From an uncultured Erysipelotrichaceae bacterium (lineage in GTDB: Bacteria > Bacillota_I > Bacilli_A > Erysipelotrichales > Erysipelotrichaceae): a stretch of 64,000 nt of DNA. The notes under the pieces were generated by a model. The model made no database searches. It saw nothing but the letters and a program-made list of their open reading frames with translations, and had not been told where the DNA came from. Shown piece after piece: positions 3,777 to 20,911 of this stretch (position 1 is its first letter; each line of letters begins with the position of its first letter). The translations under genes and the position numbers were made by a program. Location of the stretch: the NCBI GenBank assembly GCA_964371715.1, contig CAYJNO010000004.1, positions 27,061 to 91,060 of the forward strand. Reading direction: 5' to 3'.

Positions 3777-4950
3777 TTGGAAACAGGTTAAATTAGGGGA
3801 AGTTTGTGATGTTAAAGGTGGAAAAAGACTGCCGAAAGGTGAAGTGTTAACATCAAAAACTTCAGCACACCCCTATATTAAAATTAAAGATATAAAGACT
3901 ACTAAGCATTTAGAATTAGACCGTTCATTTGAGTATATAACAGAAGATATCCATACTAAGATAAGCAAATACATTGTTAATGTTAATGATATCATTATTT
4001 CTATTGTTGGTAGCATAGGTTTAGTGGCAAAAATCGGAGAAAGTTTAAATGAGGCAAATTTAACTGAAAACTGTGTAAAACTCATTAACAGAAAAAACAT
4101 AGATGAAAATTTTTTATATTATTTTCTTTCATCAAATATAGGGCAGGAAGAAATAAAAAAAGGAACTGTTGGAGCTGTTCAAGCAAAATTACCAATAAAG
4201 AATATCCAAGAAATAAAATTATTTCTCCCACCTATAGAAACCCAAAAGCAGATAGCAAAAATACTATCATCAATCGACGATAAAATCGAACTTAATAATA
4301 AGATAAACGATAATTTAGAAAAGCAAGCACAGGCAATTTTTAAATCGTGGTTTGTTGACTTTGAGCCTTTTGGTGGTGTTATTCCTGCTGATTGGAATGT
4401 CGGCACTGTTGGCGATGTCATTGAACTGCATGATGCAAAACGAGTGCCTTTGTCGGGTGCTGTTCGAGATAAAATGACAAATAAGTTATATCCCTATTAT
4501 GGTGCAGCTTCACTCATGGACTATGTTGATAACTATATCTTCGATGGCACTTATTTGTTGTTGGGTGAAGATGGAACAGTAGTGGATAGTCAAGGCTATC
4601 CTATTCTCCAATATGTTTGGGGCAAGTTTTGGGTAAATAACCACGCACACATTCTCACTGGTAAAAATGGTTTTACTGTTGAGAGTTTATATTTGCTATT
4701 TAAGCAAACACCCGTCAAATCAGTTGTGACAGGTGCAGTTCAGCCTAAAATTAGTCAAGGAAACCTAAAGTCCATAGAAGCCTTGATACCTGAATTAAGT
4801 GTGATGAATAAGTTTAATGACTTGATAAAGCCATTCTTCTTGAAGATTAAATCTAACAAAGAAGAAATTGGCAGATTATCTCAGCTTCGTGACACACTAC
4901 TACCAAAACTTATGAGTGGCGAAATAGATGTATCAAAAGTAGAGGTTTAA
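3766..4950 (+). CDS. hsdS: Type I restriction-modification specificity subunit S (two target-recognition domains)
   Basis: 394 aa. Two TRD-plus-conserved-spacer units are visible: LFLPPIETQKQIAKILSSIDDKIELNNKINDNLEKQAQAIF and IPELSVMNKFNDLIKPFFLKIKSNKEEIGRLSQLRDTLLPKLMSGEI. The start overlaps the hsdM stop. Confidence 0.9.
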   Translation: MKSNWKQVKLGEVCDVKGGKRLPKGEVLTSKTSAHPYIKIKDIKTTKHLELDRSFEYITEDIHTKISKYIVNVNDIIISIVGSIGLVAKIGESLNEANLTENCVKLINRKNIDENFLYYFLSSNIGQEEIKKGTVGAVQAKLPIKNIQEIKLFLPPIETQKQIAKILSSIDDKIELNNKINDNLEKQAQAIFKSWFVDFEPFGGVIPADWNVGTVGDVIELHDAKRVPLSGAVRDKMTNKLYPYYGAASLMDYVDNYIFDGTYLLLGEDGTVVDSQGYPILQYVWGKFWVNNHAHILTGKNGFTVESLYLLFKQTPVKSVVTGAVQPKISQGNLKSIEALIPELSVMNKFNDLIKPFFLKIKSNKEEIGRLSQLRDTLLPKLMSGEIDVSKVEV

Positions 4951-4980
4951 GCCACTAAATTATCGTTTATAGGAGGAATT

Positions 4981-5487
4981 ATGTTTTTAGATATTATTCG
5001 GGATATAGAAAATGCCTTAGAAAATGAAGTATATTTATCTGCACTGGCTTTATCTTTAACATTACCCGATATATGTGGGAAAGTAGAGTTTCCTACTATA
5101 AAGTCTACCAAACAACGATATATAAAGTGGTATGATAAGCACATTACAGCTAACAACTACCCCAATGACCACGACGAAGCATTAAAATTTAATGGCGAAA
5201 GATGTTACAAACTTAGATGTTCTTATTTACACGCAGGCGAAGTAGAACAATTTGATGGAATTGAAAATTTTGAGTTGATAATTTCAAATAAAACTCACCC
5301 TAGCGTTTATGGTGGTGGTTGTAGCACAATATTCATTGACCAAAACGGGACTAAAACTTACACAATACAACAAGATGTTGCACAACTATGTTTTTGGATT
5401 CACAGATGTGCAGAAGGTTTTTATAAAAAACATGAAAACAAAGATGCTTTTGAAAAAATAAATCCAATAATAAAAGTTAAATATTAA
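4981..5487 (+). CDS. Hypothetical protein, HEPN-like (Rx4H motif), embedded between hsdS and hsdR
   Basis: RBS GGAGG lies 5 nt upstream of the ATG. The 168-aa ORF fills the hsdS-hsdR gap. It has an N-terminal helix ALENEVYLSALALSLTLPDICG and the motif KLRCSYLH (R79-x4-H84, nt 5215-5232), typical of HEPN RNase folds. The family assignment was not verified. Confidence 0.5.
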   Translation: MFLDIIRDIENALENEVYLSALALSLTLPDICGKVEFPTIKSTKQRYIKWYDKHITANNYPNDHDEALKFNGERCYKLRCSYLHAGEVEQFDGIENFELIISNKTHPSVYGGGCSTIFIDQNGTKTYTIQQDVAQLCFWIHRCAEGFYKKHENKDAFEKINPIIKVKY

Positions 5488-5507
5488 ATTTGAAAGGAGC
5501 TGATGCA

Positions 5508-8500
5508 ATGGCATACACTGAAGCTAACTATGAAAATGCAATAATAGATTTATTCCAAAATCAATTTGGATACAACCATATATATGCACCAGAATTACCT
5601 CGTGATTACAGCAGTCCTTTGTATGAAGATATGCTTGTTTCTTGCCTTGCTCGAATAAACAAGAAACTACCACAAGATGCTATCAACGAAGCTATTTATA
5701 AGCTGAAAAACTTTGAGAGTGGTACACTAACTCAAAAGAATATTGTGTTTATGGACTACTTGCAAAATGGTGTCTCAGTTAGGTATTTTGAAAAAGGCGA
5801 AGAAAGAAATGCTATTGTTTATCTTATAGATTATCAAAATATAAACAATAACGATTTTACAGTAGCTAATCAATGGACATGTATTGAAAATTCAGAAAAA
5901 AGACCTGATGTACTACTTTTTGTAAATGGTTTGCCACTTGTAATGATAGAGCTTAAATCTCCATCAAGAGAAGAAACTGATGTGTCAGAAGCATATAGAC
6001 AACTAAGAAATTATATGTACGAGATACCATCTATGTTTTATTATAACGCAGTCTTGGTTATGAGCGACTTAACGACCTCTAAAGCAGGAACAATTACCAG
6101 TGGCGAAGATAGATTTATGGAATGGAAAACAACAGATGGAAACTATGAAAACACCCAGTATGCACAATTTGACACTTTCTTTGAAGGTATTTTTGAAAAG
6201 AATAGGTTTATAGATATTCTGAAAAACTTTATCTGTTTTAATGCTGATGGCGAGAAAACTTTTAAGATACTCGCAGGATATCATCAATATTTTGCAGTTA
6301 AAAAAGCTGTGGAAAAAGCAATGCAAGCTACTGAAACCGATGGTAAAGGTGGTGTGTTTTGGCATACGCAAGGTAGTGGTAAATCACTGTCAATGGTTTT
6401 CTATGCTCACTTGCTACAAGAGAAACTAAATTCTCCTACAATCGTAGTTATTACGGATAGAAATGATTTAGATGACCAACTGTATGGGCAGTTTTCAAGG
6501 TGTAGAGACTTTCTAAGACAAACACCAGTTCAAGCTGATAGTAGACCACATTTAAAAGAACTTTTAGCAGGTAGACAAGCTAACGGAATTATTTTCACAA
6601 CTATGCAAAAGTTTGAAGAAAATGATGTGCCTTTATCTGATAGAAGAAATATTATTGTTATGGCTGATGAAGCACATAGAGGACAATATGGACTTTCTGA
6701 AAAGGTAGAAATCAAAGAATATAAAGATGGCGAACTTACAGTAAAAACTAAAATTGGTGCTGCTAGAATTATTCGTGATAGCTTACCAAATGCTACATAC
6801 ATTGGCTTCACTGGCACTCCTATTTCATCAAAAGACCGTAGCACTCGTGAAGTGTTCGGCGATTACATAGATGTTTATGATATGACACAAGCCGTTGAAG
6901 ATGGAGCGACAAAGCCAGTTTATTATGAAAGCAGGGTTATTCATCTTAAACTAGATATTGATACTCTTGCTATGATAGATAATGAGTATGAAATTATGGC
7001 TGAAAATGCTGACGAATATGTTATTGATAAAAGCAAAAAAGAACTAGGAAAACTTGAAGTAATTTTGGGTGCTGATGAAACAATAGACTCGCTTGTCGGA
7101 GATATTTTAGACCACTATGAAAAGAATAGACAAAACTTACTTACTGGTAAAGCAATGATAGTTGCGTACTCTCGATCTATTGCAATGAAGATTTATAAAA
7201 AGATACTAGAACTTCGCCCTACTTGGGGAGAAACTGTTGGTGTTGTAATGACGCAGGGCAATAATGACCCCGAAGAATGGCGAGAGGTTATTGGAAATAA
7301 GGCGCATAAAGATGAACTGGCAAGAAAGTTTAAGGACAATAATTCTCATATGAAAATCGCTATTGTCGTTGATATGTGGCTTACTGGTTTTGATGTTCCA
7401 TCACTTGCTACAATGTATGTTTACAAGCCGATGATAGGACACAATTTAATGCAAGCAATCGCTCGTGTAAATCGTGTGTTTAAGGAAAAAGAAGGTGGTT
7501 TAGTTGTTGACTATGTAGGTATAGCTTCTGCACTTCGTAGTGCGATGAATGAATACACTAAACGAGATAAAGCAAACTTTGGCGATACAGATATTTCTAA
7601 AATGGCATTCCCTAAATTCAAAGAGAAGTTATCTGTTTGTCGTGACTTCTTGCATGGGTTTAATTATCAAAACTTTATGACGGGAACTGACCTTGAAAAA
7701 GCAAAAACTATCAGTGGTGGTGTAAACTTCTTACTTGGAAAATCTGTACTTGAAACAGATTTAGAAGAAAAAGAAAAATCACAAAATAAATATATCAAAG
7801 AAGCCTTGCTACTTAAACAAGCATTATCCCTTTGTAGTTCTTTAGTTGATGAACACACAAGGTTTGAAGCAGCTTATTTTGAAGCTGTTAGAACAATGCT
7901 TATCAGACTTACTATTGGTGGAGGTGGAAAGAAATTCACACTACCCGAAGTTAATGAGCGAATAAATGAGCTATTGAAACATTCAATTCAAAACGAGGGT
8001 GTAATAAATTTATTCTCTGATGTGCAAAATGAATTTTCGCTATTTGACCCTAAGTTCTTAGAAGAAATTGCAAATATGAAAGAGAAGAATTTAGCAGTAG
8101 AGCTTTTGAAAAAACTTATAGCCGAGCAAGTGTCAATTTACAGAAGAACTAATGTAGTTAAAAGCGAAAAATTTTCTGATATGATACAAATGGCAATGAA
8201 TAAATATTTGAATGGTATGCTAACAAATGAAGAAGTTATACAGGAGCTTTTAAAACTAGCTAAAGATTTAGCAGAAGCAAATGCTGAGGGTGATAAACTA
8301 GGACTTACACCAGATGAACTTGCTTTCTATGATGCACTCACAAAGCCACAAGCAATAAAGGATTTTTATGAGAATGATGAACTTGTTTCTCTTACAAAAG
8401 AGCTAACAGAACTGCTTAGAAAAAATCGTTCTATTGATTGGCAAAAGAAAGAAACAGCAAGAGCTAGCATGAGAAAACTTGTTAAAAGACTTTTAAAAAA

Positions 8501-8600
8501 ACATAGATATCCACCAGAAGGAATGGATGATGCAGTTCTAAGTGTTATCAGTCAGTGCGAGCTTTGGACGGATAACATTATGACAATTAAAAAAAATTAA
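5508..8600 (+). CDS. hsdR: Type I restriction endonuclease subunit R
   Basis: The preferred start is ATG 5508 (MAYTEANYENA), 8 nt after AAAGGAG; the track start 5490 is a TTG. N-terminal nuclease motif: RPDVLLFVNGLPLVMIELKS (D..E.K). Helicase motifs: HTQGSGKSLSM (Walker A), MADEAHRGQ (DEAH) and QAIARVNR (motif VI). The C-terminal LTPDELAFYDAL is typical of HsdR tails. Confidence 0.95.
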   Translation: MAYTEANYENAIIDLFQNQFGYNHIYAPELPRDYSSPLYEDMLVSCLARINKKLPQDAINEAIYKLKNFESGTLTQKNIVFMDYLQNGVSVRYFEKGEERNAIVYLIDYQNINNNDFTVANQWTCIENSEKRPDVLLFVNGLPLVMIELKSPSREETDVSEAYRQLRNYMYEIPSMFYYNAVLVMSDLTTSKAGTITSGEDRFMEWKTTDGNYENTQYAQFDTFFEGIFEKNRFIDILKNFICFNADGEKTFKILAGYHQYFAVKKAVEKAMQATETDGKGGVFWHTQGSGKSLSMVFYAHLLQEKLNSPTIVVITDRNDLDDQLYGQFSRCRDFLRQTPVQADSRPHLKELLAGRQANGIIFTTMQKFEENDVPLSDRRNIIVMADEAHRGQYGLSEKVEIKEYKDGELTVKTKIGAARIIRDSLPNATYIGFTGTPISSKDRSTREVFGDYIDVYDMTQAVEDGATKPVYYESRVIHLKLDIDTLAMIDNEYEIMAENADEYVIDKSKKELGKLEVILGADETIDSLVGDILDHYEKNRQNLLTGKAMIVAYSRSIAMKIYKKILELRPTWGETVGVVMTQGNNDPEEWREVIGNKAHKDELARKFKDNNSHMKIAIVVDMWLTGFDVPSLATMYVYKPMIGHNLMQAIARVNRVFKEKEGGLVVDYVGIASALRSAMNEYTKRDKANFGDTDISKMAFPKFKEKLSVCRDFLHGFNYQNFMTGTDLEKAKTISGGVNFLLGKSVLETDLEEKEKSQNKYIKEALLLKQALSLCSSLVDEHTRFEAAYFEAVRTMLIRLTIGGGGKKFTLPEVNERINELLKHSIQNEGVINLFSDVQNEFSLFDPKFLEEIANMKEKNLAVELLKKLIAEQVSIYRRTNVVKSEKFSDMIQMAMNKYLNGMLTNEEVIQELLKLAKDLAEANAEGDKLGLTPDELAFYDALTKPQAIKDFYENDELVSLTKELTELLRKNRSIDWQKKETARASMRKLVKRLLKKHRYPPEGMDDAVLSVISQCELWTDNIMTIKKN

Positions 8601-8888: not shown

Positions 8889-8944
8889 TTGATGGCATAT
8901 GTTGTGAAAGTTTTATTAAATGTTAAATACTGAGGGAGGATAAT

Positions 8945-11473
8945 ATGGATAAAACAGTATCATTTAAATGGGAATTAACAAAAAGAGCAATAGAAATAGA
9001 AGTAGATAAAATAGGTGATTCTAATTACTTATTTAATGAACAAATAAATCAAGTTGATAAAATTTGTAAAGAAATAATGAATTCTGGAGACAAGAATATA
9101 AACAAAGTAATTAGTGTAATTGGAGAAAGAGGAGCAGGTAAATCATCTTTACTTTTAAGTGCAAAATCTAAATTAGAAAGTAATGATGTTTATACTATTG
9201 GTCCAATAGACCCAGGTGTGTTTGATGATAAGTTAAATATACTAGAGCTAACATTAGCACACATTCACTCTATAGTTAAACGTAATAAAAATACATTTAG
9301 AGGGGAAAGTGCAGAATGTCAAAAAATTCATCTATATAATAGAATAAAATCAATTCTACAAGTTTTAAATAACATTAGAAGATGTCGTGAAGATTTTATC
9401 GAAAGTAATGATACTGATTATGTGTTAGATGATTATGATAAAAGAAGTAATTTCTCTGAATTATTAAAAGAGTTACTTGATATGTTTAGAGATTATATTA
9501 ATGCTACTAATAACAAACACTATAAACAAATTGCAATTATTATTGATGACTTAGATTTAGTAGGTAATAGTAGAATAGTCAATTTTTTAGAGGATATTAG
9601 AAAATATTTAATGAATAATGTGATTGTTGTTTTAGCTTATAGAGATATACAGCTACAAAATGCAATGAGTGAATATTTAATAAAAGAAAATGATGATCTA
9701 ATTAGAAATAAAATGATTGATACAAATGAGATAATAGCTCAATCTACAAAATATATAGATAAATTCTCACCACCTTCATCAAGAATTTATATGCCAAATC
9801 TTTCAATATCAGATAAATTTACAGTTTTAGATTTATTGGTAGGTATTAGTGATAGTAGTAAGAGTGAGTTAAAAGAATATTTAAAATTATATGGTTTAAA
9901 TGATGATTTACCGCTAAAAGAAGGTGTATTAGTTATCTTAAATAATCAATTGAGAATAAATCTTAATGCGATAGATGCAAGAGAAAGAAATATGAGCTTA
10001 TTACCTACTAATCTTAGAGGATATCTAGAACTTTTTAATTTAATATTTGAAAAAATGGAGGTTGTAAACTGCAAATCAAAAGATGATATTAAAGTGGCAT
10101 CTAAAAGTATTCTATTCAATATAGAGCTATTTAAAATATATATGCAAGAAAACTATAAGAATAGATTAACTAGTGCACAAATAACAATAATAAATGAATG
10201 GTCTAATTGCAATGTGGATATGAAAAATTACTTATTATATAAGAGTATGATTGATTCAAGTGAAAATTACATTGCTAGTCCATATTTTGGACAATTATTA
10301 GACTTGAGATTAGTTCAACCATTTAATGTTACTTTAGCTGATGTTTATATCGCATTAGAGGTATATAAAGACTTATCAAAAGAAGATCAAAATTATTATT
10401 TTATATATATTATAAAAATATTATATTCAATGGAACTCTCAAAAAATTATGTTAATTGGATATGTAGTGATTCTGAAGAGGATGGGGAAGTATTTTTAGA
10501 TTCATACTTAACAATCTTAAACTCTTATGTAATTCCGAATTATTGGATGGATGGGATCATGATCAACATTAGTAGAAATATAAGATATGATAATGGAAAC
10601 AAAAATGAAGTATTTGAAAATTTCTATAAAAATTGTGTATATAACCAAGTAACAGCATTAGGGTTAGTTAACAGAGGTGCAAGGCAAGAATTGACTTACA
10701 GTGTAGCAAAAGCAGATGATGATATCTTTGCTAATAGAAATTCAAGATTGGTAAATCCAAGAAACTCGAAAAGGATTTCTGCATTTAGATATCGCAAAAT
10801 ATTTTCATCAGATTATATTGAGTTTGAAAATGGTAGAAGTTATGAATATGACTTCTTTGGATTTATTGGAAGAAGAAGCTATTTAGAAGAGTCAAAGGCT
10901 AAATTATTATCTAATCAAGAAATGAAACTAAATTATGTTTTAACATCGTTATTTGATATAGACGTATTTATATCACAAAACTATTTCACTAATGACGAAA
11001 CGAATATAATTAACATAATCATAAAAAATATTGACAAATTATTTAATGGAGAAAGACTTGGTGATGAAGAAAATTCGAAAGCAAAAGATAGAAGGTTAGG
11101 TAATTTATCAAGTGAGATATTTACTAGTAGTATAAATTATGAAAATTTTTATTTAAATATAAGCTCAAATAATGAAACAACAGACAATAATAAGTATAGA
11201 GAAATATCGGATAGTCTGTATAATTTTATTAAACAAGAAAATATACAGCTAAAGAGGATTGTAAACAATATTGATAAAATTAAAAATAAACATGATTTAT
11301 TATCGTTTATTAAGCTAGAAACTCAAAAATTGAACAGTAAAAAATACAGAAATCAAATTTTAATATTAGATGAAATCAACGCTGTTTTAAATGCATCAGG
11401 AAAAAAACTATCAATTGAAATAAAGGAAAAATATAAATCTGTATTTAAAGAAATTTATAAAATTGATAACTAA
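8945..11473 (+). CDS. rdrA: Large P-loop NTPase (KAP/AAA-like), RADAR RdrA-like by size and gene context
   Basis: RBS GGGAGG. 842 aa. Walker A is VIGERGAGKSSLL (nt ~9121-9148) and Walker B is IAIIIDDLDLV (nt ~9531-9560). A long alpha-rich C-terminal region follows and there are no TM segments. The stop lies 1 nt before the ATG of the deaminase gene. The symbol is assigned from architecture, not from measured identity. Confidence 0.55.
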   Translation: MDKTVSFKWELTKRAIEIEVDKIGDSNYLFNEQINQVDKICKEIMNSGDKNINKVISVIGERGAGKSSLLLSAKSKLESNDVYTIGPIDPGVFDDKLNILELTLAHIHSIVKRNKNTFRGESAECQKIHLYNRIKSILQVLNNIRRCREDFIESNDTDYVLDDYDKRSNFSELLKELLDMFRDYINATNNKHYKQIAIIIDDLDLVGNSRIVNFLEDIRKYLMNNVIVVLAYRDIQLQNAMSEYLIKENDDLIRNKMIDTNEIIAQSTKYIDKFSPPSSRIYMPNLSISDKFTVLDLLVGISDSSKSELKEYLKLYGLNDDLPLKEGVLVILNNQLRINLNAIDARERNMSLLPTNLRGYLELFNLIFEKMEVVNCKSKDDIKVASKSILFNIELFKIYMQENYKNRLTSAQITIINEWSNCNVDMKNYLLYKSMIDSSENYIASPYFGQLLDLRLVQPFNVTLADVYIALEVYKDLSKEDQNYYFIYIIKILYSMELSKNYVNWICSDSEEDGEVFLDSYLTILNSYVIPNYWMDGIMINISRNIRYDNGNKNEVFENFYKNCVYNQVTALGLVNRGARQELTYSVAKADDDIFANRNSRLVNPRNSKRISAFRYRKIFSSDYIEFENGRSYEYDFFGFIGRRSYLEESKAKLLSNQEMKLNYVLTSLFDIDVFISQNYFTNDETNIINIIIKNIDKLFNGERLGDEENSKAKDRRLGNLSSEIFTSSINYENFYLNISSNNETTDNNKYREISDSLYNFIKQENIQLKRIVNNIDKIKNKHDLLSFIKLETQKLNSKKYRNQILILDEINAVLNASGKKLSIEIKEKYKSVFKEIYKIDN

Positions 11474-11474
11474 T

Positions 11475-13859
11475 ATGCAAAATGTTGATAGAATAATAAG
11501 AGTTATATATCGAGAATTATTTAGTAAAATTCTCGATAGTAACACAATAGAAAAGGATTTAAAAGTAGATTATAGTTTAAATAATACTGATTTTGTTAGG
11601 GATATTATTTATGCATATTTAAAAATATATCCAAATAACTATAATTATGAAGAAGTAAATATATTAGTTGAAAAAGTTAAAGATGAAATTAAGCATAAGT
11701 ATAATAATTTGAATCCACTATATATAATTATGCTTTATGCTAATGAAATATTACTAGTTGAATCAAATAGGCTCAAAGTTAAATTTGATGATTTATTTGA
11801 ATGGAATGGATTTATCACTAAAATAGATAGTAATATTTTTCAAGCTGCATTTTTACAAAATAGTAATGGTTTAAACTGTGAAACAGTTATAGAACATGAC
11901 AATGAAAGATTATATAATATTCTTAAAACTGGCTTATATGAAAACCATATGCATTTAAATGGTTCTGGATATTCATGGGAAATTAACTGGGATATACTAG
12001 TTTGTTCAAAGCCTTTTAATTATATAAAAAGGAAAATTAGTAAAAATATAAAATTAGCTAAATACGCTAATGAAAATTATTTAAGGATTGATAAAATCAA
12101 ATGTATAAGGTTATATCTAATATGGATAATATTAGGTAAAAAGAAAGAATACCATTTTGAAATTAGTAGAATATTAAAGAATAATTATAGATTTTACATG
12201 TATCAGGACTTAGATAAGCTTACAATATTATATGATTTATCGAAAGAATACTTTAAAAAACAATATGGAGATAGTCAAGAAGTTAATAAAAAAGAGAGAA
12301 ACTTTTTAATAGAAATATTTAAATGTTTTAATAATGGTCAATTAAATAATTTCGACAAAAATCTATTAAACATATATCTAGCAGAATTAAGTGAGTTAAA
12401 GTTCATTTTTGTTCAAGATAATATTGGTATGGGATTTAGTAAGTTTAAAGATTGTGAAATGATTAAAAGTGATTTCATGGATAAAAAAGAAGATAAGCTT
12501 TTATTAGAATCTGTATTAGAAAAATATTATAGTGAAGGTGTTGTTTTAGCTATAGAAGTAAGAATAGCTCCAAAAGATAAAACAGGACTAATTAAAAAAA
12601 TAAAGGAACTAGAAAAAGTAAATGAGAAAGTTTACAAAAAGTATTTAAGAAGAAATAAGTGTTTAAAGAAAATCAAAATTGGAATTATAATACATTATAT
12701 AAAGATGAGTGAAAAATTTACAAATAATGGTTGTAGACATTCAAATTTAAGGGGTAGAATTAAAAAAGCTGCAGTAGGTCTTGATCAGTATTTTGAAAGT
12801 GGATATAAATCTGATATTAAAGTTGTCGGTATAGATGCTGCAAATGTTGAAATAGATTGTCCACCTGAAGTATTAGCACCTATATTTAGGAAACATAGAG
12901 CAAATACTTCCAGTAAATATGATTTAGGTTTTACATATCATGTAGGTGAAGAATTTTTAACTTTAGCAAGTGGGTTAAGAGCAATAGATGATTTAATTGA
13001 ATTTTTTAATTTCAAATCTGGTGATAGGTTAGGGCATGCTTTAAGCCTTGGGTTAGATCCTGATAAATACTTTTCTACTAAAAGAAATCTAATTAATACA
13101 ACATTAGAAAGCCATGTAGATGATCTTGTGTTTTTACATAAAATAAATTGTGCTTTAGGTGAAGCAAATTTATGTTTCAAATTAGAACAAGAATTTATTA
13201 AATATGCTTCAAAATTATTTGTAAATACTTTAGAAAGTCTTCCATTAATTACAGATTATAGAGATAGCTATGCGCTAAGAGGAAATGATCCAAAGTATTT
13301 AGATAATAACATATGTTCTGAAAATCAACCTGTATTTATGTGTGAGAAAGACCATATCTATAATTTCAACAATTCTAATCATAATGAAGCTTTTAAAAAT
13401 AAGCTTGCCCATAAATTATTGGGATTATATCATTATAATGAAGACTTATATAATACAGGTAAAACTTCTCTTTCTATAAATGTTGAAGATTTCTATATTA
13501 ATGCAGTTAAAAATGTTCAAAAATATATGATTAAAAGAGTACATAACATTGGTATCTCAATAGAAATCAATCCATCATCAAATAAGAAAATATCATTTAT
13601 TGACAAGTATAGTGATTTAACAGTATACAAACTTAATAATTATAAACTACCTAATGCAGATAATACAATTAATAACTTACATGTAAGTATTAATACAGAT
13701 GATAGTGGAATTTTTGAAACTAACTTATCTACTGAATATTCATACATTGCTCTATCTTTGATAAAAGATGGTGTTGATAAAGAAATAGTTTATGAATATA
13801 TAGAATATTTAATTAAGATGGGAAAAGATGCTTCATTTTTAAATAAGACTATAAGGTGA
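11475..13859 (+). CDS. rdrB: Divergent adenosine deaminase-fold protein with large insertions, RADAR RdrB-like
   Basis: The preferred start is ATG 11475; the track start 11463 is a TTG overlapping the upstream gene. All four metal/catalytic signatures of the adenosine/AMP deaminase superfamily occur in the correct order. They are ENHMHLNGS (HxH, nt ~11944-11966), TYHVGEEF (HxGE, nt ~12939-12956), DRLGHAL (nt ~13025-13042) and SINTDDSGIF (NTDD, nt ~13690-13710). At ~795 aa it is about twice the size of housekeeping Add. Confidence 0.65.
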   Translation: MQNVDRIIRVIYRELFSKILDSNTIEKDLKVDYSLNNTDFVRDIIYAYLKIYPNNYNYEEVNILVEKVKDEIKHKYNNLNPLYIIMLYANEILLVESNRLKVKFDDLFEWNGFITKIDSNIFQAAFLQNSNGLNCETVIEHDNERLYNILKTGLYENHMHLNGSGYSWEINWDILVCSKPFNYIKRKISKNIKLAKYANENYLRIDKIKCIRLYLIWIILGKKKEYHFEISRILKNNYRFYMYQDLDKLTILYDLSKEYFKKQYGDSQEVNKKERNFLIEIFKCFNNGQLNNFDKNLLNIYLAELSELKFIFVQDNIGMGFSKFKDCEMIKSDFMDKKEDKLLLESVLEKYYSEGVVLAIEVRIAPKDKTGLIKKIKELEKVNEKVYKKYLRRNKCLKKIKIGIIIHYIKMSEKFTNNGCRHSNLRGRIKKAAVGLDQYFESGYKSDIKVVGIDAANVEIDCPPEVLAPIFRKHRANTSSKYDLGFTYHVGEEFLTLASGLRAIDDLIEFFNFKSGDRLGHALSLGLDPDKYFSTKRNLINTTLESHVDDLVFLHKINCALGEANLCFKLEQEFIKYASKLFVNTLESLPLITDYRDSYALRGNDPKYLDNNICSENQPVFMCEKDHIYNFNNSNHNEAFKNKLAHKLLGLYHYNEDLYNTGKTSLSINVEDFYINAVKNVQKYMIKRVHNIGISIEINPSSNKKISFIDKYSDLTVYKLNNYKLPNADNTINNLHVSINTDDSGIFETNLSTEYSYIALSLIKDGVDKEIVYEYIEYLIKMGKDASFLNKTIR

Positions 13860-13950: not shown

Positions 13951-15135
13951 ATGAGCGAATCAAATTCTTCACATGTAAAGGGTCTACATAATTTTTTAGC
14001 TAATATCGATTGTTTAAATAAAATATATGAACATACAAATAGATTTAACATATTTGATGTGCTAAAAATAGCAAAGACTGAAATCAGACATAGTAATACT
14101 ATTGCATGGTTGTTAGACCCAAATGAAAATCATGGATTAAATGAAAAGATTTTATTAGGTCTAGTTAAAAATATTGCTAGTCACTTAGATGTTGAATCAA
14201 GTATTAAGTTATTATCTATAGATTTAAATGATTTTAAGGTATATAGAGAAAAGTATAATATAGATATTTTGCTAGTTTCAACAAAGAATAAAGTTGTTAT
14301 ATGCATTGAAAATAAAGTTTGTTCATATGAACATGGTGATCAATTAAACTATTACAAAGGGATTGTTGAAAATAGTTATAAAGACTTTAATAAATACTAC
14401 ATTTACTTAACAGCAAGAAATGATGAACCAAGTGATGGTGAAAATTGGAAAAAATTTTCTTATGAAAAACTGGTTAATATAATTGATGAAGCAATAAAAG
14501 ATAATGAAATAATATCAGTTGAAGTTTATTATTTTTTAAAAAATTACATAGAAATAGTGAGGTATAATGTTTTGGAAAATAAAGAATTAATAGATATTTG
14601 TCAAAAGATTTATAATGATCATTCAAAAGCTTTGGATTTAATTTATGAATATAAGCCAGATCATAGAGAAGAATATAAAACATTTATTTTAGATTATTTG
14701 AAAAGATGTGATTTATTTAATAGTCGTTTTAACTTAAATGAAGGTTGTTCTAATAATGAGCATATTAGATTTACATCATATATACTTGATGAGAAAATTC
14801 CTCAATCATCAACAAAAACAAGTGGGTGGGATACGAAAAATCATTATTTTTATGAAATATATAATGATGGTTTTTCAATATATTTACAACTTGCGATCAG
14901 CAAAGGTAGCTTAAGTACGGATGAAGCAAATAATAAGTTTGAAAAAATAATTAAAAAATTAAAATGTAAAAATAATAAAGTTAATTGGAAATGGAAAGTT
15001 TTAATAAAATATGATGTTTGTGATTATAGGGGATATGAAGATGTTGCAGATGCTAAAAAAGATATTAAATTGGAATTAGATAAAAATTTGAAAAAAATAA
15101 TTGAACTTGAAAATAATAACTTTAAAACTTTATAG
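13951..15135 (+). CDS. PD-(D/E)xK nuclease superfamily protein (PDDEXK_4-like)
   Basis: The preferred start is ATG 13951 (MSESNSS), 7 nt after AAAGGAG; the track start is 13918. N-terminal signature: FNIFDVLKIAKTEIRHSNTIAWLLDPNENHGL. Nuclease core: DILLVSTKNKVVICIENKV (D...E.K). A possible own promoter TGATATAAT lies at 13891-13899. Confidence 0.6.
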   Translation: MSESNSSHVKGLHNFLANIDCLNKIYEHTNRFNIFDVLKIAKTEIRHSNTIAWLLDPNENHGLNEKILLGLVKNIASHLDVESSIKLLSIDLNDFKVYREKYNIDILLVSTKNKVVICIENKVCSYEHGDQLNYYKGIVENSYKDFNKYYIYLTARNDEPSDGENWKKFSYEKLVNIIDEAIKDNEIISVEVYYFLKNYIEIVRYNVLENKELIDICQKIYNDHSKALDLIYEYKPDHREEYKTFILDYLKRCDLFNSRFNLNEGCSNNEHIRFTSYILDEKIPQSSTKTSGWDTKNHYFYEIYNDGFSIYLQLAISKGSLSTDEANNKFEKIIKKLKCKNNKVNWKWKVLIKYDVCDYRGYEDVADAKKDIKLELDKNLKKIIELENNNFKTL

Positions 15136-15164
15136 TAGTTGAAAGAAAAAAATATGTATTAAAG

Positions 15165-15198
15165 AGAGGATAATCTAAAATCATTATCTTCTTTTTTT
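15165..15198 (+). terminator. Rho-independent terminator after the PD-(D/E)xK gene
   Basis: A 10-bp stem AGAGGATAAT / ATTATCTTCT (one G:U pair) with an 8-nt loop, followed by a T7 run. Confidence 0.6.
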
Positions 15199-15430: not shown

Positions 15431-15473
15431 GTTATGTCTGATCTATTGACATAACTTTTATTATTAGTATAAT
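15431..15473 (+). promoter_or_regulatory. Near-consensus sigma-A promoter with a perfect 8-bp inverted repeat over the -35 (candidate operator)
   Basis: TTGACA (15446-15451), 16 nt, then TATAAT (15468-15473). The inverted repeat GTTATGTC-N9-GACATAAC (15431-15455) overlaps the -35. The site is ~50 nt upstream of ATG 15523. Confidence 0.55.
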
Positions 15474-15522: not shown

Positions 15523-16098
15523 ATGCACACAAATATTAAAGGAATAGGTAATTTAATTGGTGGTCAGATTATTAATAGAGTTGAGGCTAAACGTGATGAT
15601 TTTGAATTTGGTGAAATTAAAATACTAGCTCCCAAAGCTATTACAAATGGTGTAATTGATCACAGTTCACTAACAAGTCTAAAAATTAAAACAATGCCAG
15701 ATGAAAAGAAATTAACTAAAGAAGGTGACATTGTCTTAAAGTTATCTCAACCATATGAGGCAGCATATATTAATAAAGATGATGAAGGTTTATTAGTTAC
15801 ATCATTTTGTATTATTTTAAGGAATATTCAAAAAGATGAAATTAGTCCAAACTTTATACTTACATTTATTAACTCTGAATTATATAAAGAACAAGTATTA
15901 GAGTTAACATCAGGTGCAAGTGTTCCTTTATTAACTAAAGGCTTAATAGAAAAGATAACACTAGATGTACCTACTATTATTGCTCAATCTATTATAGTAG
16001 GTAAATCTGACTCTATTAAAAGAAAAGAAGCTTTGTTTAATGAAGTAATTAAGTTAGAAAAAATGAAACTTGAAAATATGCTTAGAGGTGAAGAATAA
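15523..16098 (+). CDS. Half-size HsdS-like specificity protein (single target-recognition domain)
   Basis: RBS GGGGGG. 191 aa. One TRD is followed by the S-subunit conserved helix region LDVPTIIAQSIIVGKSDSIKRKEALFNEVIKLEKMKLENML. Its stop overlaps the next ATG (TAATG). Confidence 0.7.
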   Translation: MHTNIKGIGNLIGGQIINRVEAKRDDFEFGEIKILAPKAITNGVIDHSSLTSLKIKTMPDEKKLTKEGDIVLKLSQPYEAAYINKDDEGLLVTSFCIILRNIQKDEISPNFILTFINSELYKEQVLELTSGASVPLLTKGLIEKITLDVPTIIAQSIIVGKSDSIKRKEALFNEVIKLEKMKLENMLRGEE

Positions 16099-17423
16099 TG
16101 AACACTAAATTTGATGAAGTACTATGGAAATGTATGGATGCATTAAGAGGTAATTTTGCATATGAAGATTGTAATAGAATCTTAATCTATATTATATTTT
16201 TAAAATATATTATAGATAATAAAAAGATTGATTTAAATAATGAATCCTTTGAAACATTCTTAAATGCTCAAAGAATGTTTGATAAAGGATTATTAGAAAA
16301 AGATATTATAAATGATTTAAATTATATGATAGAAAATCAATATAATATGGCAAATGGTGCTTTAAGTGATTTCTCTAATACTTACTTTAAAGTTCTAGAT
16401 TTTAATAATAAAGTTAATATCATTGAAAAATTAAAAGTTGAATCATTTGTTAATGAAAGTGATGCTGTTATGGATTCATTAAAAATGATTTTATTAGAAC
16501 ATGCATCAAGCTTTTCAAGAATAGTAGGTGATGAAATATCAAGTAATTCAATATCATTATTAACTAAAGAATTATTAGGTTTAAAAGATCATGAAAGCTT
16601 AATAGATTTAACTTATGGTTTAGGATTATCATCATTAGAAATAACTAATGATAGTAATGAACTTATAGGTTATGAAATAGATAGATCTATTGCCACAATG
16701 GGTATCATGTTATTAATTATTTCAGAAAAGTCTAATTTTAAACTATACAATGAAGATGCTACAAATAGTGATGAATATGAAAACTACTTTGATAAAGTAG
16801 TAGCATATCCACCACTTGGTATTAAAGTAAAAGATTTTGATTTAAATAAATCTAACTTGTTAAAAGAATTTAATTTGCCTGAAAAAAATTGTAATCTAGA
16901 AGTCTTTATTGCACTTAGTGCAATAAAGAAACTTAAAGAAACGGGTATTGCAATAATTGCTATATCATCTAATATCTTATTTTCATCAACAGTAGTTGAA
17001 AAAAGTTTTAGAGAATTAATAGTAAATAATTATTTAAGTAGTGTTATTACATTACCACCATTATATTATGGTACTAATGCAGATATTAACTTAATTATCT
17101 TAGAGAAAAATCGTATTAGTGATAACGTTACCTTTATAGATGCAAGTAATAATGAACATTATGATTTTATCGTTAAAGATAAAAAATCACAAAATGAATT
17201 ATCAAATGATGCTATAAGTAAAATTGTAAGTATAGTTAATGAAAAACAAACCTTTAAAGGTATTTCTTATACTTGTAGTGTTAGTGATTTAAAACGAAAT
17301 GATTACACTTTATCACCATCAAAATACACAAAAATGAAGAAACAAAGAGAAGTATTATCTAATGAAGAAATTGATAGTAGATTAAGTGAATTATATGAAG
17401 AAATAAAAAGAATATTAAAATAA
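16098..17423 (+). CDS. HsdM-like gamma-class methyltransferase homologue with non-canonical motifs I and IV
   Basis: The HsdM_N-like N-terminus is LWKCMDALRGNFAYEDCNRILIYIIFLKYIID. Motif I reads IDLTYGLGLSS instead of DPxCGSGG. The motif II acidic residue is kept (GYEID). Motif IV reads VVAYPPLG (nt 16801-16820) instead of NPPF/Y. The C-terminal DLKRNDYTLSPSKY is typical of HsdM. Confidence 0.65.
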   Translation: MNTKFDEVLWKCMDALRGNFAYEDCNRILIYIIFLKYIIDNKKIDLNNESFETFLNAQRMFDKGLLEKDIINDLNYMIENQYNMANGALSDFSNTYFKVLDFNNKVNIIEKLKVESFVNESDAVMDSLKMILLEHASSFSRIVGDEISSNSISLLTKELLGLKDHESLIDLTYGLGLSSLEITNDSNELIGYEIDRSIATMGIMLLIISEKSNFKLYNEDATNSDEYENYFDKVVAYPPLGIKVKDFDLNKSNLLKEFNLPEKNCNLEVFIALSAIKKLKETGIAIIAISSNILFSSTVVEKSFRELIVNNYLSSVITLPPLYYGTNADINLIILEKNRISDNVTFIDASNNEHYDFIVKDKKSQNELSNDAISKIVSIVNEKQTFKGISYTCSVSDLKRNDYTLSPSKYTKMKKQREVLSNEEIDSRLSELYEEIKRILK

Positions 17424-17437
17424 AAAGGAGGAAATAA

Positions 17438-18142
17438 ATGAATTATTTTATAAAAGAAAACAAATGGTTAACGCTTATCTCATTGCCACTTATTATATGG
17501 AGTGTCTTATTTATCACAATGCCATTTATTACTTACTATAATATCAATTTATTTAGTAGTAGCTATATGATGCTATATGCAGTATATTTAGGATCTTATA
17601 TTATTGTGGTAGGTATTACATTAAATAACAAAAAAGCAATGAAAATTAAACAAGCAGAAAAAGAAAGACTACTTATTGTCGAATCATTAGCTAAAATTAA
17701 GATAAATGAACCGAAAAATATCTTGACTACATTTACATCAATGAATGCAGCTAATAATATTAATAATAATGATATAGTTATCATTAAAGAGCGTTTATCT
17801 AATCTAATTTATAGCATAAATAATAATAAACTTATATTAAGTACATCAAATGATAAAAGACTAAATCATTATATTGACCAGTTTAACAAGACTACAAACA
17901 CCATTGAAGAAACAATAGCTAAATTAGAATTATTTATCAATAATTCTATAGAAAATAATAAGACAATTTTTGAACTTGAAAAAGCTAAACAATTATTCAA
18001 TGAGTCACCAAGTTTTACAAGATCTTTAAAGGTACAAAAATTTAAACATGAAATGATAGATCTTACACAAGATTTTGAAGAATTAACTTTATTAACTGAA
18101 GAATGTTCTAAAGTAAATTATAAGATTAATATTGATAATTAA
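17438..18142 (+). CDS. Two-TM membrane protein with a cytoplasmic coiled-coil-like domain, function unknown
   Basis: RBS AGGAGG; the start is 14 nt after the M-like stop. Two hydrophobic helices are present: LTLISLPLIIWSVLFITMPF and MMLYAVYLGSYIIVVGITL. A ~170-aa charged and Asn-rich helical region follows. Confidence 0.6.
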   Translation: MNYFIKENKWLTLISLPLIIWSVLFITMPFITYYNINLFSSSYMMLYAVYLGSYIIVVGITLNNKKAMKIKQAEKERLLIVESLAKIKINEPKNILTTFTSMNAANNINNNDIVIIKERLSNLIYSINNNKLILSTSNDKRLNHYIDQFNKTTNTIEETIAKLELFINNSIENNKTIFELEKAKQLFNESPSFTRSLKVQKFKHEMIDLTQDFEELTLLTEECSKVNYKINIDN

Positions 18143-18358
18143 TGATAAGTAAAACCTTCACTTTATGTTCACTTATCTCATATTGAAAATGTAATATAAG
18201 CTATGCTATACTGTGTAAGTTGATTATTTACAACAGATTAAAAGAAGTTTTTAAGATATAGTTATATAATACTTTGCTCATGTTGTGATCATGTTTTATT
18301 AATGATATACAACGATTTGTAAAGTACTATTTTTGTAAGTAATCTATTGGAGGTTATT

Positions 18359-20911
18359 ATGAAGAAAGTATCACATATATATGATGGTAAAGAATCATTT
18401 ATAAATAAATTAAATGAAAATAAAATAGATTTTTATGCTCCATTACTTGTAAGAATTGTAACTGCTAAAAGTTCAAGAGATAATGCTTTAGCTTTAGCAA
18501 AACAAATTAAAGAAATATTACCGAATGGAATGATTGTTGGAGCAACATCTTCAGTAAGTGTTATTCATAATGGAGAAGCAGTTGATGATGCTACATTAAT
18601 TGTGGTAGAACAATATACTAAGTTAATATTAAGTGTTAGAAAACTACCTTTTATAGATAAAAATATTGAAACAATTGCTAAACAAGTACATGACATTAGT
18701 ATGGAAATTGGAAGTACAAAAACAACAATTAATTTATTATTTAGTAATAAATTTTGGGATGGATTTAAATTTGTACGTGAATTTGATAAATTAACACCTC
18801 AAATGAAACTTGCAGGTGGGATGGCTGGAGAAATGTCTCATTTCTATGGCGATAGTTATTTGTTTGATGAAAATGGTGTTTATGATGAAGAGATGTTTAT
18901 TTTTGCAGCTACAGCTGAAGAAGAATATCATTTCACACAAGCATTTACACCACATGATAAATTAAACGATGATATTCATGAAATAACAAAAGTTGATGGA
19001 CATTTCATCAAAGAAATAGATAATGAACCAGCAGGAGATTGGATGCTTAATTATCTTAATTTAAATAAAGATAATGTAGCACATTATGATTTTGTTACTA
19101 CTCAAACTGATTTTGATACAACCTTTGAACAATTAAATAATGATTACTTAACAAGGTTTCCTTTATTGTTAGAACATGATGGTACAGGATTTTATAATAG
19201 TTATGATAGTAAAGAAAATAGTTTATCTGCATATCATGCTAATTTAATGGTTAAAGAAAAATTTAAAGTAGGGTATGTAACACCAATTGCAGCTATGAAT
19301 GCTACTTATGAACTTATTTCTGCAACATATAGTGCACCTATTGAATTAGTATTTGCTTATTCTTGTGTTGTACTTAGAATGTATTTATCAAACGTAGCTA
19401 AATGGGCATTATCACCATTTGAACAATTTGATGTCTCAGGAATGTTCATGATGGGTGAATTAGTCTATCAAAATGGAAGAAATGAATATCATCAAGGTGC
19501 ATGTGTTCTACAATGCATTGCTGAAAGTGAAGTATATGCAATACCAAATTTAAAAACATTAGAACAAATAGAACTTGTAGAAACTGATTTAGACTTTATT
19601 TTAAAAGCCATTGAAAAACAATCACAAACTACAAAAAGTGGAGCTAAATATGCTGAAAAACTAGAAAAATATCGTCGTGGTGGAAGCATTGAAAGCTACT
19701 ATAAAGATCCTGATTTTAATATGCCAAACATGCTACAATATCGAGTAGATAATGATACTTTTAAAATGAATAAAGTTTGTTTAGTAGAAATTCAAACAGC
19801 TGATGCTACAGTTGCATTTGCTGGACAAGAAGCATATAACTTATCATGTGTTGAAATGATAAATGAAATTGGAGAAATATATAAAGATAATCCAGTATAT
19901 AAACTATCAAGGATGTATGCATTTAACTATAAATGTATTGTTATTTCATGTCTTGATTATGTAAGTAATATGGATTTTATTGAGTATTGTAAAGAGCTTC
20001 ATAAACAATATGGATATGCCAAATCTCGATGCCATGACATTACAAGTGTAAGTCGCTTTGTAGTAGTATTAAATCAAGAAAATCCTGTAGAAGAGGGTAT
20101 GAAGTATTTATTTTCAAATTCTGATAAAATGGAAACATTCTTTATTAGTAGTACATCATCACAAGATTATGATGTTAGTAATGAAGAATTAAGAGCCTTA
20201 GATTTACTTAATAGAGCAATAGAAAATAAATTAGTTGTTCCATATTATCAAGGTATACATAATAATCAAACAAATAAAATTGATAAATATGAAGCTCTAA
20301 TGAGAATAATTGACTTAGATGATAAAGTATATTCTCCATATGCATTTATTGATATATCTCAAAAATATAAATTATATACGCATATCAGTAGATTAATGAT
20401 TGAACAAGTTTTACATGACTTTAAGGATAGAGATGAACAAGTATCAATAAATATATCAGTAAATGATATTGAATCATCAACATTTAGGGAATGGTTTATT
20501 AATGCTTTATCTAATTTTAATAAGCCAGAGAGAGTTATTGTAGAACTATTAGAGAGTGATGATTTTAAACAACTAGATAATTTCTTTGAGTTTGTAAATG
20601 AAATCAAAAGCCTAGGTTGTAAAATTGCTATTGATGATTTTGGTTCAGGATATTCAACATTTACAACAGTAATGCAATTAGAGCCAGATTATATAAAAAT
20701 AGATGGTAGTATTGTAAGTCAGGTTGCTAATAATAGTAAATCAATTATGGTTCTTGATACAATTCAATACTTAACTAAAAAATTAGAAGCAAAAGCTGTC
20801 GCTGAATTTGTTGAAAATGTAGATATTCAAAATATTTTAAATAAATATGAAATATCATATTCTCAAGGCTATTATTTTGCAAAACCTGTTCCTTTTGATG
20901 AATTGCCTTAA
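18359..20911 (+). CDS. FIST domain / degenerate GGDEF-like / EAL domain c-di-GMP phosphodiesterase
   Basis: The preferred start is ATG 18359, 5 nt after GGAGG; the track start 18347 is a TTG. EAL signatures: YEALMRII, IAIDDFGSGYSTF, YIKIDGS, AVAEFVEN, SQGYYFAKP. The N-terminal ~400 aa looks FIST-like and the central region lacks a GG(D/E)EF motif. Confidence 0.75.
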   Translation: MKKVSHIYDGKESFINKLNENKIDFYAPLLVRIVTAKSSRDNALALAKQIKEILPNGMIVGATSSVSVIHNGEAVDDATLIVVEQYTKLILSVRKLPFIDKNIETIAKQVHDISMEIGSTKTTINLLFSNKFWDGFKFVREFDKLTPQMKLAGGMAGEMSHFYGDSYLFDENGVYDEEMFIFAATAEEEYHFTQAFTPHDKLNDDIHEITKVDGHFIKEIDNEPAGDWMLNYLNLNKDNVAHYDFVTTQTDFDTTFEQLNNDYLTRFPLLLEHDGTGFYNSYDSKENSLSAYHANLMVKEKFKVGYVTPIAAMNATYELISATYSAPIELVFAYSCVVLRMYLSNVAKWALSPFEQFDVSGMFMMGELVYQNGRNEYHQGACVLQCIAESEVYAIPNLKTLEQIELVETDLDFILKAIEKQSQTTKSGAKYAEKLEKYRRGGSIESYYKDPDFNMPNMLQYRVDNDTFKMNKVCLVEIQTADATVAFAGQEAYNLSCVEMINEIGEIYKDNPVYKLSRMYAFNYKCIVISCLDYVSNMDFIEYCKELHKQYGYAKSRCHDITSVSRFVVVLNQENPVEEGMKYLFSNSDKMETFFISSTSSQDYDVSNEELRALDLLNRAIENKLVVPYYQGIHNNQTNKIDKYEALMRIIDLDDKVYSPYAFIDISQKYKLYTHISRLMIEQVLHDFKDRDEQVSINISVNDIESSTFREWFINALSNFNKPERVIVELLESDDFKQLDNFFEFVNEIKSLGCKIAIDDFGSGYSTFTTVMQLEPDYIKIDGSIVSQVANNSKSIMVLDTIQYLTKKLEAKAVAEFVENVDIQNILNKYEISYSQGYYFAKPVPFDELP

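Follow-up and report, generated by a model that had tools for sequence, protein, structure and literature searches.

RADAR is a two-gene anti-phage system in which an ATPase (RdrA) is paired with an adenosine deaminase (RdrB). The systems of Streptococcus suis, Escherichia coli and Citrobacter rodentium have been reported to protect against T-even phages, and RdrB has been shown to turn (d)ATP into (d)ITP both in vitro and in vivo, a reaction that depends on the RdrA and the RdrB active site alike (PMC9994260). RADAR systems share 22-28% identity, confined to their catalytic parts, and a Gram-positive representative is already known and validated in S. suis (PMC9994260). A survey from 2023 counted 270 RADAR systems in ~38,000 genomes. 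Here we describe a pair of genes at positions 8945-13859 of a 64,000-nucleotide stretch of contig CAYJNO010000004.1 (the window, by which the whole of that stretch is meant), which an earlier note, based on the letters of the DNA, had read as a remote RADAR variant. The RADAR assignment is borne out: sequence and fold matches to RdrA and RdrB, intact catalytic residues, the insertions specific to each of the two proteins and the pairing of the genes are all found. We regard the pair as very probably an intact RADAR system of the S. suis-type clade, located in a chromosomal defence island and, judging from its homologues, likely to defend its host through a phage-triggered, RdrA-dependent conversion of (d)ATP into (d)ITP.

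The first gene, rdrA (8945-11473, + strand, ATG start, taken from the list of open reading frames, ORFs), encodes an AAA+/KAP-type ATPase of 842 amino acids (aa), and is preceded by the Shine-Dalgarno sequence GAGGGAGG (8932-8939, + strand), read from the sequence 5 nucleotides (nt) 5' of the ATG. The second gene, rdrB (11475-13859, + strand, ATG start), encodes an adenosine-nucleotide deaminase of 794 aa. At their junction (TAA-t-ATG, 11471-11477, + strand) the stop codon of rdrA (TAA, 11471-11473) and the start codon of rdrB (ATG, 11475-11477) are separated by 1 nt, as had been described before for the two long ORFs, and this spacing is consistent with translational coupling. The mechanical ORF list gives the second frame as 11463-13859 (+ strand), with a TTG start and 798 aa; the ATG at 11475 is the likely start, since from residue 1 onwards the RdrB N-terminus MQNVDRIIRVIY can be aligned both to S. 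suis RdrB and to the consensus of the family. Hence the deaminase length of ~795 aa given in the earlier note stands, while its figure of 798 aa applies only from the upstream TTG. At the local G+C content of 24%, stops would make up about 10% of random codons, and both frames are therefore far beyond chance (probability of an open frame ~8e-41 for 842 codons and ~2e-38 for 794 codons).

The identity of the ATPase was established by both sequence and predicted fold. When RdrA was compared with the PDB sequences (phmmer), a single protein was matched, 8FNU (E=1.8e-49, aa 8-505 and 607-696), the RdrA of S. suis SS993, whose RADAR protects E. coli from T-even phages (PMC9994260). A BLASTP comparison with an RdrA allele from S. 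suis gave 28% identity across aa 9-499 (E=3e-50), and Pfam returned generic AAA_22 and nSTAND matches only. An AlphaFold2 model, built from a 25-sequence alignment (predicted local distance difference test, pLDDT, 73; predicted template modelling score, pTM, 0.69), was searched against the PDB with Foldseek: the top 20 matches are all RdrA, the best being 8fnu_A (E=3.7e-23, template modelling (TM) score 0.63/0.67, 719 columns). The matches start with S. suis 8fnu_A, continue with the E. coli RdrA entries and only then reach Cdc6/ORC, the same relative ordering as given in PMC9994260.

The nucleotide-binding motifs of the ATPase, which the earlier note had already recognised, are complete. In the Walker A motif GERGAGKS (aa 60-67; 9122-9145, + strand) the clade alignment shows no variation at G60, R62, G63, G65 and K66, and the form G-x-R-G-x-G-K-[ST] recurs among the RdrA partners of the fetched loci. 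The Walker B motif DDLD (aa 201-204, within IIIDDLDL; 9545-9556, + strand) has D201, D202 and D204 invariant, its counterpart in E. coli RdrA being D221/D222 (PMC9994260). RdrA proteins are defined by two insertions, a helical "crown" in place of helix alpha2, which docks onto RdrB, and three helices between strands beta4 and beta5 (PMC9994260), and the AlphaFold2 secondary structure indicates that both are present in the window protein. The predicted crown (insertion 1, aa 99-188; 9239-9508, + strand; pLDDT ~70-92) is modelled as a bundle between beta2 (aa 82-88) and the Walker B strand (aa 195-200), and three predicted helices (insertion 2, aa 234-274; 9644-9766, + strand; pLDDT ~90) are modelled between beta4 (aa 227-232) and beta5 (aa 280-282). 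In addition, R358 in PTNLRG (10016-10018, + strand), which is invariant in both RdrA alignments and stands opposite the arginine in S. suis LMPKTLRE, is a candidate sensor-2 arginine or arginine finger. In RdrA proteins an alpha-helical C-terminal lobe makes up the second layer (PMC9994260). In the window protein this region (aa ~501-842; 10445-11470, + strand), a proposed phage sensor, is highly divergent: against S. suis RdrA, HMMER aligns only aa 607-696 of this lobe, and BLAST nothing past aa 499.

PADLOC (models of v2.0.0, here and below) matched the deaminase with its RdrB models PDLC02219 (E=4.3e-25) and PDLC02218 (E=7.7e-19, aa 81-756 against positions 82-813 of 855), and the NCBIfam RdrB model aligned with aa 27-784 over positions 16-843 of 850 (E=2.5e-39). 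Among PDB sequences only E. coli RdrB was matched (8FNV/8FNW, E=1.5e-24), and the protein is colinear from end to end with S. suis RdrB (locus L085; 33% identity, E=3e-125). Its AlphaFold2 model, based on a 71-sequence alignment, is of high quality (pLDDT 92.4, pTM 0.93), and E. coli RdrB accounts for each of its eight best PDB matches (TM 0.69-0.77 over ~850-877 columns); ADA, ADAL, AMP deaminases and Cad1 follow at a query TM score (TMq) of at most 0.34, most of them only over the catalytic core, and the ordinary deaminases among them (ADA, ADAL and AMP deaminases) reach no more than 0.31.

The four deaminase signatures that had been noticed in the second ORF are the metal and catalytic sites of RdrB. 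In E. coli the active site has been described as H152, H154, H498, H530 and E501 (PMC9994260). The window protein has the zinc ligands H158 and H160 (HMH, aa 158-160; 11946-11954, + strand) opposite E. coli H152/H154, the zinc ligand H489 and the catalytic glutamate E492 (HVGEE, aa 489-493; 12939-12953, + strand) opposite H498/E501, the fourth histidine H521 in RLGHAL (13035-13037, + strand) opposite H530, and D742/D743 in NTDDSG (13698-13703, + strand) opposite D748/D749. In an alignment of 71 RdrB homologues H158, H160, H489, E492, H521 and D742 are invariant and D743 is nearly so. RdrB has been reported to be set apart from ordinary adenosine deaminases by three insertions, one N-terminal, one splitting the core and one following the last histidine (PMC9994260). 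Of these, the N-terminal extension amounts to ~150 aa ahead of the HxH motif, and the ligands are spaced at 329/32/221 residues, so close to the 344/32/218 of E. coli RdrB that the core-splitting and post-last-histidine insertions are evidently present at RdrB size. The large insertions that had been deduced from a doubled length are therefore those of RdrB.

The two genes are also kept together in relatives. One genome per species was scanned with the RdrB alignment, by which at least 327 relatives were found, and 80 loci were kept, spanning Bacillota, Bacteroidota, Alphaproteobacteria, Fusobacteriaceae and Mollicutes. For the pairing count, loci needed 2.4 kb or more of sequence upstream of the rdrB homologue, which left 69, and an RdrA-type ATPase was called by a match to the hidden Markov model (HMM) of the clade and/or by the G-x-R-G-x-G-K-[ST] motif. 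In 61 of these 69 informative loci the gene immediately upstream of the RdrB homologue encodes such an ATPase, across several phyla and in unrelated contexts, and between homologous rdrA and rdrB genes the gap or overlap usually falls within -20 to +40 nt. The window RdrA and RdrB have their closest homologues on shared contigs, where these are adjacent in the same order. The surroundings of such pairs vary: in loci L001/L002 the pair sits between a TIR gene and McrBC-like genes, while in Carnobacterium iners it adjoins fragments of insertion sequences (IS). In S. suis (L085) rdrB follows immediately on, and overlaps with, the gene of an RdrA allele (L085:3393-6014) for which 8FNU is a full-length match (1079 bits). 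Among the fetched loci no gene family recurs downstream of rdrB within the clade, so that a conserved third RADAR gene is not indicated.

Among the outcomes named in advance as speaking against RADAR were a deaminase closest to metabolic enzymes, an NTPase from an unrelated family and a pair not kept as neighbours. None of these three was found: RdrB models match the deaminase over nearly its full length and its RdrB insertions are present, the ATPase has 8FNU and RdrA structures as its matches, and the pairing holds at the frequency given above. The earlier note's fallback, a new family of NTPase-deaminase systems, consequently does not apply, as the pair belongs to RADAR.

Its description as a remote variant is fitting, with nearest relatives that are just 33-34% (RdrA) and 45% (RdrB) identical, a divergence that, on these sequence comparisons, falls inside the known spread of RADAR. 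Clustering at 90% identity leaves both window proteins as singletons, and at 50% identity RdrA represents a cluster of its own. With the clade RdrA profile, 3,157 representative clusters were retrieved at E<=1e-3 and 592 at E<=1e-30, and ~90 with full-length similarity. RdrB relatives were absent from the phage collection, and on plasmids there were eight weak matches only, one of which is annotated as rdrB by RefSeq; there is no sign that the clade travels on known phages or plasmids.

Several points weigh against the assignment or against parts of it. The PADLOC RdrA models gave no match to the window RdrA even at E<=10, the NCBIfam RdrA model gave none either, and the NCBIfam RdrB model scores the window RdrB at 135.5 bits against a cut-off of 800. 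The RdrA model is weak at aa 586-622 and 703-842 (pLDDT <50-60), its final ~140 residues being of low confidence. The acidic three-fold patch E595-E597, which is essential for the three-fold interface and the dodecamer of E. coli RdrB (PMC9994260), lies opposite E-S-L in the window RdrB in a single pairwise HMMER alignment of a variable region, and a dodecameric cage is for that reason not assured; no S. suis-type RdrB structure was among the PDB matches of the window RdrB. The ATP-to-ITP chemistry has been shown for E. coli and C. rodentium and not for the S. suis-type clade (PMC9994260). Finally, the scans for expression signals were uninformative in this AT-rich region, with 57 promoter-like sites against 67.6 expected from shuffled sequences and 0 terminators; a TTGTAT-17-TAAAAT element ~55 nt upstream of rdrA is a hand-read candidate that counts as no evidence.

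The poor alignment and modelling of the RdrA C-terminal lobe fit the description of a highly variable RdrA C-terminus, hypothesised to be a possible sensor (PMC9994260). The failure of the curated models is a property of the clade. The S. suis allele of L085, whose RdrA matches the solved structure, also has no PADLOC RdrA match, is matched by PADLOC RdrB at 1e-24 and scores 47.5 against 600 with NCBIfam RdrA and 159 against 800 with NCBIfam RdrB. The PADLOC RdrA models recognise the ATPases of L024, L042 and L055, but no S. suis-type ATPase, be it from P0004, Carnobacterium, S. sanguinis L008, L012 or L014; the RdrA-type ATPase of L074 is likewise unrecognised. The L042 ATPase is matched both by a PADLOC RdrA model (4.6e-16) and by the clade HMM (1.5e-57), and it therefore bridges canonical RdrA and the S. 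suis-type clade. As failing is common to a clade that includes a validated system, missed cut-offs, which are an operational and not a biological measure, are no argument against membership, and the missing RdrA model match, considered as evidence against RADAR, was discarded in view of the 8FNU match and of the S. suis, S. sanguinis and Carnobacterium misses. With respect to the checks that the earlier note had proposed, structure prediction with Foldseek led from the RdrA model to RdrA structures and from the RdrB model to E. coli RdrB, the alignment of ligands set HxH, H489/E492, H521 and D742/D743 opposite their E. coli counterparts, and PADLOC recognised one protein of the pair, RdrB, leaving RdrA unmatched.

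The oligomeric assembly, trigger, substrate and defence phenotype of the window pair can be sketched by analogy with its homologues. RdrA would form a two-layered heptameric ring ATPase, as described in PMC9994260, and its crown would dock over the active site of an RdrB dodecamer cage. The divergent C-terminal lobe of RdrA may sense phage infection, which would activate the complex within minutes, the ATP-dependent activity of RdrA switching RdrB on. RdrB would then deaminate ATP and dATP to ITP and dITP, with both active sites needed, and the products would presumably poison the nucleotide pool and stop phage replication, resulting in abortive infection.

It is possible, albeit rather unlikely, that the S. 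suis-type clade departs from this E. coli paradigm, be it in how RdrB oligomerises, in responding to a new trigger from the phage or in the optional use of a nuclease as accessory. Such a departure is worth considering because the EEE patch seems to be absent, the RdrA C-terminal lobe is unalignable within the clade, and a PDC-S26 nuclease-like gene follows rdrB in two unrelated genomes (see below).

A second alternative concerns the substrate: the window system might edit RNA, with RdrA loading RNA into RdrB for the conversion of adenosine to inosine, rather than deaminating mononucleotides. The name of the system and its first report (Gao et al. 2020, as far as it is recounted in PMC9994260) speak for editing, as do PDB entries 8HRA/8HRB, titled "RdrA ring in RNA-loading state", among the structural matches, and a weak A-to-G signal of ~4% for C. 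rodentium RADAR (PMC9994260). However, E. coli RADAR has been found to protect without detectable RNA editing, purified RdrB acts on ATP and dATP and not on hairpin RNA, and RdrB has an ADA-type His-tetrad mononucleotide site instead of an ADAR or cytidine-deaminase fold (PMC9994260). The window RdrB carries the same ADA-type site, and we consider RNA editing unlikely here.

The gene following rdrB raises the question of a three-gene variant. This gene (13951-15135, + strand) encodes a PD-(D/E)xK protein (Pfam PDDEXK_4) and is catalogued by PADLOC as the candidate defence gene PDC-S26 (E=8e-106), in agreement with the PD-(D/E)xK neighbour of the earlier note. It could be a RADAR accessory or effector: it is on the same strand, 91 nt past rdrB, no terminator was found between the genes (the scan found none anywhere in the region), and in the unrelated locus L081 (Sphingobacterium) the rdrB stop is likewise followed, after 13 nt, by a PDC-S26 gene. 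This second PDC-S26 gene was located at L081:9558-10739 in Sphingobacterium tabacisoli. On the other side, PADLOC treats PDC-S26 as a separate candidate system, of a class "S" which we take to be single-gene, and the window gene has its own AAGGAG ribosome-binding site and an extended -10-like element, TGATATAAT, in the spacer. Moreover, no PDC-S26 gene lies downstream of rdrB in the other ~83 loci, closest relatives included, so that its place beside rdrB is probably island co-location, and S. suis RADAR functions as two genes (PMC9994260). A role of PDC-S26 in RADAR is thus very unlikely, and as a conserved third gene it was rejected since it does not recur downstream within the clade. Just past the PDC-S26 stop an AT-rich hairpin and, after it, a T-run, GAGAGGATAAT...ATTATCTTCTTTTTTT (15157-15197), were read by hand; this element resembles the first terminator downstream of rdrA, as a hand-read candidate only that is not counted as evidence, and with fewer than 3 G-C pairs it escaped the terminator scan. 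On the other flank, the spacer upstream of rdrA holds only ORFs of 33-58 aa, and PADLOC found no RdrC/RdrD among the neighbours, which agrees with the earlier remark that no small accessory gene is adjacent.

A copy with intact frames that is nevertheless unexpressed or non-functional would fit the lack of a promoter that can be called with confidence and the singleton status of both proteins, which have no close relatives. We find it highly improbable that the copy is silent or decaying, given two long ORFs intact where ~10% of random codons are stops, all family-invariant catalytic residues kept, a strong Shine-Dalgarno sequence and a coupled junction. In addition, the G+C content at third codon positions (GC3) is 0.16 for rdrA and 0.14 for rdrB, equal to that of the housekeeping genes priA and sufB of the host, which suggests long residence under selection. 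Lastly, a separate NTPase-deaminase family that resembles RADAR, or a metabolic deaminase lying beside an unrelated ATPase by chance, is hardly credible: the curated RdrA models do miss the ATPase and the Pfam A_deaminase match is below threshold (26 bits against 27), but the 8FNU homology, the full-length fold matches to RdrA and RdrB only, the RdrB-type insertions and the conserved pairing refute it computationally, and the same models miss the S. suis allele.

RADAR thus remains the favoured reading of the pair, and its surroundings indicate a chromosomal location. At its right end the window contains sufS, sufB, priA, rsmB, rlmN and a PASTA Ser/Thr kinase (above equivalog cut-off). The order priA-rsmB-rlmN-PASTA kinase is a chromosomal arrangement of Bacillota, and therefore the host is taken to belong to this phylum, which fits the low-GC Bacillota host expected earlier. 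Nearly all long ORFs of the window are on the + strand, the GC skew is positive throughout, and no transfer RNA or Rfam matches were found in the window. Every one of the window proteins found in a 15-billion-protein collection is a singleton at 90% identity, and the species is missing from the GTDB representatives that were scanned; the host lineage is a poorly sampled, AT-rich one within Bacillota.

The defence island reads, in order, ZacC-like gene, PDC-S14, type I restriction-modification (R-M) operon, RADAR, PDC-S26 and a second specificity/methyltransferase (S/M) pair. The C-terminus of a ZacC-like helicase (~280 aa; 136-984; PADLOC E=5e-105, model positions 732-1018 of 1019) opens the window, the gene probably starting before position 1, and is followed by the candidate defence gene PDC-S14 with a DUF4357 domain (994-1893, E=7e-99). 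The type I R-M operon (2274-8600) is complete and comprises hsdM (2274-3776), hsdS (3766-4950) and hsdR (5490-8600), with a 168-aa ORF without Pfam or PADLOC match between hsdS and hsdR (4981-5487); Pfam and PADLOC scans thereby confirm the R-M flank that had been recognised. Its genes have a G+C content of 31-37% and a GC3 of 0.22-0.27, against a GC3 of 0.10-0.17 elsewhere in the window, suggesting that this operon was acquired more recently. Beyond PDC-S26, a sigma-70 consensus (TTGACA-16-TATAAT, 12/12; 15446-15473) stands ahead of the second S/M pair, which according to PADLOC and Pfam consists of a half-size specificity subunit of 191 aa (15523-16098) and an N6-methyltransferase (16098-17423), followed by a 234-aa ORF without assigned family (17438-18142). 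PADLOC additionally matches the S and M proteins of this pair to its MADS components mad5 and mad2; a restriction subunit is not apparent. Other large genes of the window encode a FIST-EAL protein of 854 aa (18347-20911), a leucine-rich-repeat adhesin-like protein of 854 aa (26634-29198) and a 2126-aa ORF (35845-42225).

Two observations were made in other loci. An RdrB-like deaminase without RdrA is present in 11 Bacteroidota loci (L027, L035, L040, L051, L052, L054, L058, L065, L066, L071 and L080). In L027 (L027:1797-9313 and neighbours) the deaminase matches PADLOC RdrB at 3.5e-33, and the HxH, HVGE and GHA motifs are kept in the three that were checked (L027, L051 and L071). Within a few kb lies a conserved trio of genes, encoding a ~345-aa protein without PADLOC match, a ~445-aa radical-SAM/SPASM protein matched at 3e-24 by the viperin (pVip) models of PADLOC, and an SNF2 helicase of ~755 aa that is DpdE/ZorD-like (3e-108). 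From locus to locus the trio shows 42-56% identity, and it is not always oriented in the same way with respect to the deaminase. A conserved ORF of 101-159 aa is found 3' of the deaminase in 10 of the 11 loci. A limited literature search found no description of the combination of deaminase, radical-SAM and SNF2 proteins, and the set may represent a distinct nucleotide-modifying defence system. The other observation concerns the S. suis RADAR locus, where a gene with a Ham1/RdgB-like (ITP/dITP pyrophosphatase) domain (L085:9963-10973) lies ~1.4 kb downstream of rdrB, past an Asp/Glu racemase gene. These two are probably a housekeeping pair; the neighbour is curious since RADAR makes ITP and dITP.

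The main value of the window pair lies in annotation and sampling. Automated annotation would probably overlook it, and owing to the blind spot of the PADLOC v2.0.0 RdrA models and of the NCBIfam cut-offs, RADAR is probably under-counted in Bacillota and in gut metagenomes. The pair opens no new mechanism. As a compact and very divergent example it could help to define which residues are conserved in the crown, at the interfaces of the cage and in the sensor lobe.

The pair was also compared with known enzymes and systems. Housekeeping adenosine deaminase (Add; PF00962, TIGR01430) is a single-domain protein of about 330-360 aa. It has the catalytic TIM-barrel core and the metal ligands in common with the window RdrB, but it has less than half its length, and RdrB stays below the cut-offs of both models: the PF00962 (A_deaminase) match covers aa 685-757 only (26.0 bits, cut-off 27) and TIGR01430 gives 27 bits against 216. 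An identity as housekeeping Add was therefore ruled out by the 794-aa length, the failed cut-offs and the partial structural coverage. Cad1, the CARF-fused adenosine deaminase of type III CRISPR that converts ATP into ITP, is an ADA-fold immune deaminase like RdrB. The PADLOC CARF_ADA model matches the window RdrB at 2.7e-09 over aa 684-791 only, and Cad1 structures are weak fold matches (TMq 0.23-0.28). In contrast to Cad1, the window protein has an RdrA ATPase as partner and carries the RdrB-specific insertions; Pfam found no CARF domain in it and no CRISPR genes were among the ORFs scanned (positions 136-25603), by which an identity as Cad1 was excluded.

A further comparison is with the RADAR of E. 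coli P0304799.3 and C. rodentium (8FNT, 8FNV, 8FNW, 8HR7-8HRC). Both window proteins have the same folds as theirs, and the His tetrad, the Glu, the Asp and the two RdrA insertions are common to them, although identity in structural alignment is just ~14-19% and the models centred on these systems (PADLOC PDLC02216/7, NCBIfam NF041743) fail to detect the window RdrA. The closest described system is the RADAR of S. suis SS993 (8FNU; Duncan-Lowey et al. 2023, PMC9994260), which differs in its genomic context, in RdrA C-terminal lobes that BLAST cannot align and in length, the window proteins being shorter (842 against 873-907 aa for RdrA and 794 against 860-864 aa for RdrB) with gaps across several alignment regions. 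On the other hand, the two systems have the same gene order and the same coupled junction, both come from Gram-positive hosts, and neither is picked up by the PADLOC RdrA models or reaches the NCBIfam cut-offs. The RADAR of the window is a very divergent addition to this known two-gene anti-phage system and not a new system.

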